The translations under genes and the position numbers were made by a program. From sequence record MG197996.1: 39,761 nucleotides of DNA; one strand, written 5' to 3'. Numbering within the stretch: position 1 is the first letter of the stretch; each line of letters opens with the position of its first letter. The notes beneath the pieces were generated by a model. It did not search any database. It had not been told where the DNA came from and was given only the letters and a program-made list of their open reading frames with translations. This DNA comes from Escherichia phage APC_JM3.2. Shown here piece after piece: positions 16,946-17,212 of the stretch.

Positions 16946-17212
16946 ATGACACACATGATCTTTCGTCATGGCGACATGAAGAAGTGGAAAGGCGTTGGCT
17001 ACGACTTTGAAATCGTGAAAGCCGAAGAGCTTCAGGAATATCTGGATGCTGGTTGGTTTTCACATCCTGATGACCTTTTGAAGGATGTTGCAGAGCCAGA
17101 GCCAGAGCCAGAGCCAGAGCCAGAGCCAGAGCCAGAGCCAGAAGAAAAACAGCGTAAAAAGCCTGGTCGAAAACCTAAGGCGGCAGCAGATGAACCTGAC
17201 AACGAAGGGTGA
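16946..17212 (+). CDS. Small protein with (Glu-Pro)8 repeat and basic C-terminal tail
   Basis: 88-aa ORF, GGAGA RBS 6 nt before ATG 16946; overlaps gp4 start by 23 nt; contains in-frame GAGCCA x8. Confidence 0.6.
17093..17140 (+). repeat. Perfect hexanucleotide tandem repeat (GAGCCA)8
   Basis: Eight uninterrupted copies counted directly, in frame encoding [16 protein letters not shown]. Confidence 0.95.

Follow-up and report, generated by a model that had tools for sequence, protein, structure and literature searches.

Phage P22 carries, between its coat gene and gene 4, a small gene named orf69 (NP_059631), and in the same position phage Sf6 has gene 6, annotated as similar to hkbT of phage HK620. 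The records of both P22 and Sf6 show an equivalent stem-loop behind the coat gene. The family to which these genes belong is known, as an uncharacterised one, and so are in-frame coding VNTRs and Glu-Pro (EP) spacers, among them the Glu-Pro/Lys-Pro rod of TonB and the EP repeats of trypanosome procyclin. In phage lambda, gpFI is a small non-structural DNA packaging chaperone which links the procapsid to the terminase-DNA complex (PMC13595911). A literature search that included MLVA/VNTR and phage-SSR studies returned nothing on orf69, Sf6 gene 6, hkbT, the WDGH proteins described below or the repeat considered here; the literature matches for Sf6 gene 6 or gp6 concerned gene 61, a holin, and the 'ORF69' of an Stx2 phage is an unrelated Sp5 gene number. 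In the literature searched, the hypervariable locus presented below, the head/spacer/tail architecture that it has in common with the WDGH proteins, and its link to a module of homing-endonuclease-like proteins appear to be unreported.

The small gene between the coat gene and gp4

The window, that is, the whole analysed stretch of 39,761 nucleotides from Escherichia phage APC_JM3.2 (MG197996.1), is the mosaic genome of an E. coli phage of the P22-like (Lederbergvirus) type, and its virion module shows ~96% identity to phages Dewey, CurroJimenez_Bas106, and IME10. The features of the region of interest are as follows.

15606-16901, + strand: coat protein gene, homologue of P22 gp5 (Pfam P22_CoatProtein, E=1.2e-164), the upstream neighbour of the ORF
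16907-16934, + strand: terminator-like stem-loop of the coat gene, AGAGGGAGC-TTCG-GCTCCCTTT plus a T-run (terminator scan), the left edge of the variable slot
16936-16939, + strand: ribosome-binding site GGAG, 6 nt upstream of the ATG at 16946 (sequence reading)
16946-17212, + strand: 88-aa ORF, homologue of P22 orf69 (PHROG 1175; phrog_1175, E=9.4e-37)
16946-17092, + strand: N-terminal head, residues 1-49, predicted as a beta-hairpin, a helix and a short helix, holding the 'GW' module
17093-17140, + strand: perfect hexanucleotide microsatellite (GAGCCA)8, encoding (Glu-Pro)8 (Tandem Repeats Finder)
17153-17179, + strand: basic AT-hook-like core RKKPGRKPK, residues 70-78 (alignment)
17190-17212, + strand: 23-nt overlap of the ORF with gp4, encoding the acidic C-terminus DEPDNEG and the stop (sequence reading)
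17190-17690, + strand: gp4 head-completion (tail accessory factor) gene (Pfam P22_Tail-4, E=1.3e-59; phrog_637, head-tail adaptor Ad3)

The first-pass annotation, made from the letters alone, had described an 88-aa ORF that has a good ribosome-binding site, lies between coat terminator and gp4 and shares 23 nt with the latter, and all of this holds: GGAG precedes the ATG by 6 nt, 16901 is the last position of the coat gene, and gp4, the downstream neighbour, starts with the ATG at 17190. The stem-loop that separates the ORF from the coat gene has a GC-rich stem of 9 bp and, together with its T-run, was located by the scan at 16907-16928. The ORF itself reads from the ATG at 16946 to the TGA at 17210-17212; in the program-made ORF list its frame is carried in a GTG-extended form. 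An overlap of the same type is present in P22 (17 nt), in Sf6 (26 nt), and at the loci L089 and L090, two divergent homologues with 50% and 40% identity that lie between a P22-type coat gene and gp4. The ribosome-binding site of gp4 is located within the 88-aa ORF, and the two genes are probably translationally coupled, as their arrangement indicates. A sequence scan detected no promoter-like site upstream of the ORF, which, together with the gp4 overlap, implies expression from the late operon. No Rfam family was matched anywhere in the window.

Several other frames over the array were considered and set aside. An N-terminally extended form of gp4 (MLQSQSQ..., 17085-17690, + strand, 201 aa) is a spurious ORF, kept open by the fact that GAGCCA contains no stop in any frame; it was rejected because the ATG at 17085 lacks a properly spaced ribosome-binding site and because P22 gp4 aligns from 17190. 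The minus-strand ORFs running across the array (GSGS..., WLWL...) are likewise repeat artefacts.

The match to phrog_1175 covers residues 1-86 of the product and profile positions 1-72 of 72, and P22 orf69 itself matches PHROG 1175 with E=4.5e-31. Together with this profile match, the 88-aa ORF has the slot between coat terminator and gp4 and the family layout of a GW..HP head, an acidic linker and a GRKPKA-type tail; at the level of sequence it is homologous to P22 orf69 and represents the E. coli clade. This qualifies the remark of the first-pass annotation that the ORF could not be recognised as a canonical P22 structural gene: no known structural gene is involved, but the ORF has an annotated P22 homologue. 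In every relative examined, the homologue lies in this slot. Every source that names the product calls it hypothetical, PGAP does so in ~170 E. coli genomes, and PHROG 1175 is listed with function unknown. NCBIfam holds no model for the 88-aa protein or for its WDGH variant, and the only Pfam match of the 88-aa product is a sub-threshold, compositional one to Trypan_PARP (PF05887), which scores 20.4 bits with a cut-off of 100; a score so far under the cut-off gives no ground for homology to procyclin.

Computed over 86 loci, pN/pS is 0.056 for the head (codons 1-49), compared with 0.057 for gp4 and 0.067 for the coat gene, and 0.46 for the tail, a value derived from 45 nt. Being as constrained in its head as gp4 and coat, the ORF is a real protein-coding gene under purifying selection. 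The closest named phage, IME10, carries the 88-aa ORF with 8 units, 98.9% identical; it is unannotated in all three IME10 records, JN600960.1, JF974339.1, and NC_019501.1.

Copy number and length variation of the (GAGCCA)n array

The perfect in-frame (GAGCCA)8 tract that the first-pass annotation had singled out is confirmed both by direct reading and by Tandem Repeats Finder, which reports the interval 17091-17142 with period 6, 8.7 copies, 100% matches and a score of 104. It is by a wide margin the strongest tandem repeat found by this program in the window, and the chance expectation for such a run in 39.8 kb is ~1e-23. Another period-6 signal, at 34562-34645, is degenerate (63% matches in Tandem Repeats Finder) and is not a microsatellite; it lies inside a 322-aa protein encoded at 34189-35157 on the minus strand, whose long central region is rich in Glu, Ala, Lys, and Arg and probably forms a coiled-coil.

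The (GAGCCA)n locus was found in 217 of 5,426 complete E. coli genomes (~4%). Match lengths in 89 of the complete genomes, a set drawn from the hit ranking, are broadly spread and correspond to 1 to 33 units, and direct extraction from 80 IMG/VR viral contigs, mostly short-read assemblies, gave 1-14 units; these copy-number samples are non-random. Phage isolates have 2-8 units. Perfect arrays of 13, 20, 24, 29, and 33 units were read base by base in complete E. coli genomes, each within an intact ORF; since such perfect long arrays are held by independent complete genomes, assembly artefact is excluded as their source. The ORF is intact and in frame in all 86 loci examined. Where pairs of loci show no mismatch over 2,147 bp of flanking sequence, copy number nevertheless differs in seven pairs out of ten; it changes much faster than point substitutions build up. 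The expectation that slippage would alter the length of the linker and spare the frame is thereby borne out in close relatives with 1-33 units. The comparison of copy number across prophages had been proposed beforehand, and an invariant repeat or frameshifted ORFs were named as the outcome that would count against the idea; the repeat proved variable, and no frameshifted ORF was seen.

The array consists of perfect head-to-tail units of a length that is a multiple of three, lies inside the ORF, and is polymorphic in copy number; it is a slippage-prone in-frame coding microsatellite (VNTR). As each unit equals two codons, any expansion or contraction preserves the ORF as well as the gp4 start that overlaps it. 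The array does not have the properties of an on/off contingency locus, for its unit is of 6 nt, the frame is kept at 86 of 86 loci, and its position is internal to the ORF and outside a promoter. In one clade the arrays are homogenised for the synonymous unit GAACCA, and in another for GAGTCA (Glu-Ser), which indicates replication slippage or concerted evolution and not point mutation. Additionally, long pure arrays adjoin at least four different gp4 protein alleles, a distribution which points to repeated independent expansion, although recombination may have played a part.

Several observations concern the records in which the array is found. Short-read assemblies often stop inside the array, giving partial proteins that end at the repeat. 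The 29-unit allele of E. coli ECONIH6 (NZ_CP026199.1; locus L086, 297-689) is an intact ORF of 130 aa, which PGAP flags as a pseudogene, 'incomplete; missing C-terminus'; automatic annotation seems to be misled by long arrays. Two assemblies labelled 'DH5alpha', NZ_CP026085.1 and NZ_CM135829.1, carry a P22-like prophage with the array locus, and the match length in both equals that of E. coli W (439 bp, ~6 units); these assemblies may represent mislabelled strains. In practical terms, short-read assemblies are to be expected to break or truncate at the array, and annotation pipelines to mis-call long alleles as pseudogenes. A range of 1-33 units at a locus present in ~4% of complete E. coli genomes also makes the array a high-resolution marker for P22-like prophage lineages, and places it among the most length-variable coding repeats that could be expected in a phage structural operon.

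Head, spacer and tail as separable modules

An AlphaFold2 model built from a 20-sequence alignment predicts strands at residues 2-8 and 19-25 and helices at 26-34 and 41-49, with pLDDT of ~70-91, and leaves the spacer and the tail unstructured. The head is acidic (net charge -4, pI 5.1), the (EP)8 spacer contributes a further -8, and the core of the tail is basic, with a pI of 10.2; the whole 88-aa protein has a net charge of -12 and a pI of 4.6. In the family alignment A2 the residues K72, P73, P77, and K78 of the tail are invariant, and 120 of 145 small-family proteins contain a G[RPQL]KPK motif.

The basic C-terminal tail reads as it was quoted in the first-pass annotation, which had called it reminiscent of AT-hook-like DNA-binding motifs. 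That likeness stands in part. The motif is conserved in the family, some homologues have a canonical RGRP core (KRRGRPPKA, KKRGRPTKV) and others RGRK, and RGRP or RGRK also occurs in some members of the WDGH family. In the window, however, the core KKPGRKPK contains GRKP and not G-R-P, and the Pfam model AT_hook (PF02178) gave no match at E<=0.1. With such a core and a silent Pfam model the tail can be called, by its sequence, only AT-hook-like.

In ~40 E. coli genomes the slot between coat and gp4 holds a longer gene, although the flanking coat and gp4 genes are 97-99% identical. The example from E. coli SJC33 (NZ_CP080255.1; locus L084, 696-1307) is an intact ORF of 203 aa, to which positions 16935-17092 of the window are the counterpart. 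Its product consists of a diverged GW head, a WDGH domain (PF25311, E=1.5e-39), a (GAGCCA)5 array and a tail identical to that in the window, and belongs to PHROG 3769; PGAP labels this intact ORF a partial pseudogene. The WDGH proteins thus share with the window the slot, a related GW head, a (GAGCCA)n array of 1-5 units and a nucleotide-identical tail, and differ from it by an extra WDGH domain of ~100 aa inserted between head and spacer. Match lengths of the WDGH type range from 771 to 795 bp in steps of 6, so the array varies there as well. Between the small and the WDGH cassettes, the left breakpoint of homology is the coat terminator and the right one the array, and by this comparison the coat-to-gp4 slot is a site of cassette exchange. 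Across Enterobacterales, WDGH-type proteins have the same order of parts, that is, head, WDGH domain, dipeptide-repeat linker (EP; GT in one case), basic motif and acidic end. Since the EP array and the tail are found joined to a different and larger WDGH body, head, spacer and tail are in effect separable modules.

In one member of the WDGH family (P0215) a (Gly-Thr)n linker replaces (Glu-Pro)n, and a 93-aa allele (P0143) has an internal duplication of 13 residues at the end of the head. Both cases show a general tendency of the linker region to form repeats.

The WDGH domain is modelled confidently (pLDDT ~90). A PDB sequence search with the WDGH protein, and another with a profile of the GW module, gave no match, and the hits of a Foldseek search of viral models were all small phage proteins, themselves uncharacterised, with marginal E-values; no structural match of the head or of the WDGH domain offered a functional clue.

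A further set of relatives of the head was found outside the phage family. When the head alone served as query, exhaustive searching with phmmer retrieved the small family and, at E=1e-7 to 1e-3, proteins of 200-480 aa (P0129-P0142) that have GIY-YIG, HNH, or NUMOD3 signatures followed, towards the C-terminus, by a module in 4-6 tandem copies. The module comprises ~30 residues, W-I-N-x-G...K-x-I-K-x-E-E-L-Q-x-Y-L-D-x-G-W-x-x-G, and is represented by no Pfam model and no solved structure. Profile-profile comparison of the head with the tandem module by hhalign gave a probability of 95.4% and E=1.9e-8 over 20 columns, which suggests that the head and the endonuclease-like proteins share a strand-helix module. 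The two settings differ: the module of the homing-endonuclease-like proteins is basic (mean charge +2), tandem and linked to a nuclease, whereas the phage head is acidic, present in a single copy and without a nuclease domain. This opposition of charge does not favour DNA binding by the head.

Possible roles of the gene and comparison with known systems

A reading which we hold to be reasonably probable, with moderate confidence, combines a slippage-prone array, a constrained late gene of the orf69 type and a product acting as a non-structural tether that tolerates almost any spacer length. Slippage lets the copy number drift freely between 1 and at least 33 units with the frame kept. The array would encode an extended, acidic, probably stiff Glu-Pro spacer joining the head to the basic tail; the head may bind a protein partner belonging to the head-assembly or packaging machinery, and the AT-hook-like tail may contact DNA. 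The product could then be a late non-structural accessory protein, similar to gpFI in position and layout. The polymorphism is most simply read as a sign that this function tolerates almost any spacer length; it would then be largely neutral, as is assumed here, and slippage would go unpurged.

The same array can be read as adaptive. Spacer length would then be under diversifying selection, for functional reach or for escape from a host factor, with the microsatellite kept as a generator of variants. The extreme range, the purity of the long arrays (with as many as 33 units, next to several gp4 alleles), the recurrence of dipeptide linkers (EP, ES, ET, EQ, GT) in different lineages of the small family as well as of the WDGH family, and the exchange of cassettes in the slot itself are all consistent with such selection; a broad distribution is, however, what unconstrained stepwise mutation would be expected to yield, a unit of six bases cannot act as an on/off switch of the gene, there is no known phenotype, and P22 orf69 has no repeat at all. 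We regard this explanation as rather unlikely. Its more specific form, in which selection acts on the EP array as a 'molecular ruler', heritable slippage tuning the reach between the DNA held by the AT-hook-like tail and a head-assembly or packaging partner held by the GW head, or in which slippage evades a host factor, is in our estimate distinctly unlikely; were it true, the locus would be of a contingency type acting through linker length, without on/off switching, in the structural operon of a temperate phage. The relatives of the head raise another possibility, that of a bipartite DNA binder in which a homing-endonuclease-type DNA-binding head and the AT-hook contacts are spaced by the EP rod. 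The phmmer placement of the head core in the proteins with 4-6 module copies and GIY-YIG, HNH, or NUMOD3 signatures, together with the profile-profile match (95.4%, E=1.9e-8), speaks for it, but the alignment spans 20 columns, the head is acidic (net -4, pI 5.1) where the modules average +2, and the endonuclease module is itself a putative DNA binder lacking a structure, so that the idea seems improbable.

A Glu-Pro rod whose regularly spaced carboxylates imitate a nucleic-acid backbone could act as a decoy or DNA mimic, titrating a host DNA-binding defence protein or nuclease, with the tail or head providing the targeting; the net charge of -12 and pI of 4.6, one more negative charge with each added unit, and the hypervariability common in genes of phage-host conflict would fit such a role. 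A position in the late operon and coupling to gp4 are nevertheless atypical of anti-defence genes, nothing was matched in PADLOC or the other libraries, and the rod is missing from P22 orf69, for which reasons a decoy is thought very improbable. Least credit is given to the view that the ORF is translated merely to bring ribosomes to the overlapping gp4 start and that its peptide is irrelevant. The overlap is indeed kept in P22, Sf6, and other relatives, and the gp4 ribosome-binding site does lie inside the ORF, but a mere leader would not conserve its amino acids, and here the head shows constraint like that of its essential neighbours (pN/pS 0.056) and a fold predicted with confidence; we consider a leader function scarcely probable at all.

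These findings offer, for the first time, concrete points of approach to a gene of the P22 late operon for which there has been no explanation from the annotation of that genome onwards, namely the three-part architecture, the strong constraint on the head, the conserved AT-hook-like tail, the modularity seen with WDGH, and the testable analogy to gpFI. The nearest annotated relative, P22 orf69, resembles the 88-aa ORF in its slot after the coat stem-loop, in its overlap with gene 4 and in the order of its parts, an EL.EY..GW..HP..LL head, an acidic stretch, GRKPKA and an acidic end; it differs in that PVEADDV, which is not a repeat, stands where the array would be, and the identity of the heads is ~35%. 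Sf6 gene 6 and HK620 hkbT likewise occupy the slot and overlap the gp4 homologue, and have a short head and KRGRK near the C-terminus, but they belong to PHROG 3251, align weakly (25% identity in alignment A1) and contain no repeat. With in-frame coding VNTRs and EP-repeat spacers, those of TonB and procyclin among them, the likeness is that of tandem repeats, in units of a multiple of three, which yield extended Pro-rich spacers of polymorphic length; unlike these, the EP array of APC_JM3.2 sits in a phage late operon.

The gene for lambda gpFI lies between E, for the major capsid protein, and FII, for head completion; in gpFI an acidic flexible linker connects a folded module with a second one. 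It differs from the 88-aa protein in having neither a repeat nor an AT-hook-like tail, and the two show no sequence similarity (hhalign probability 0.13%). By analogy of position and layout, gpFI would be the closest working model for the 88-aa protein.
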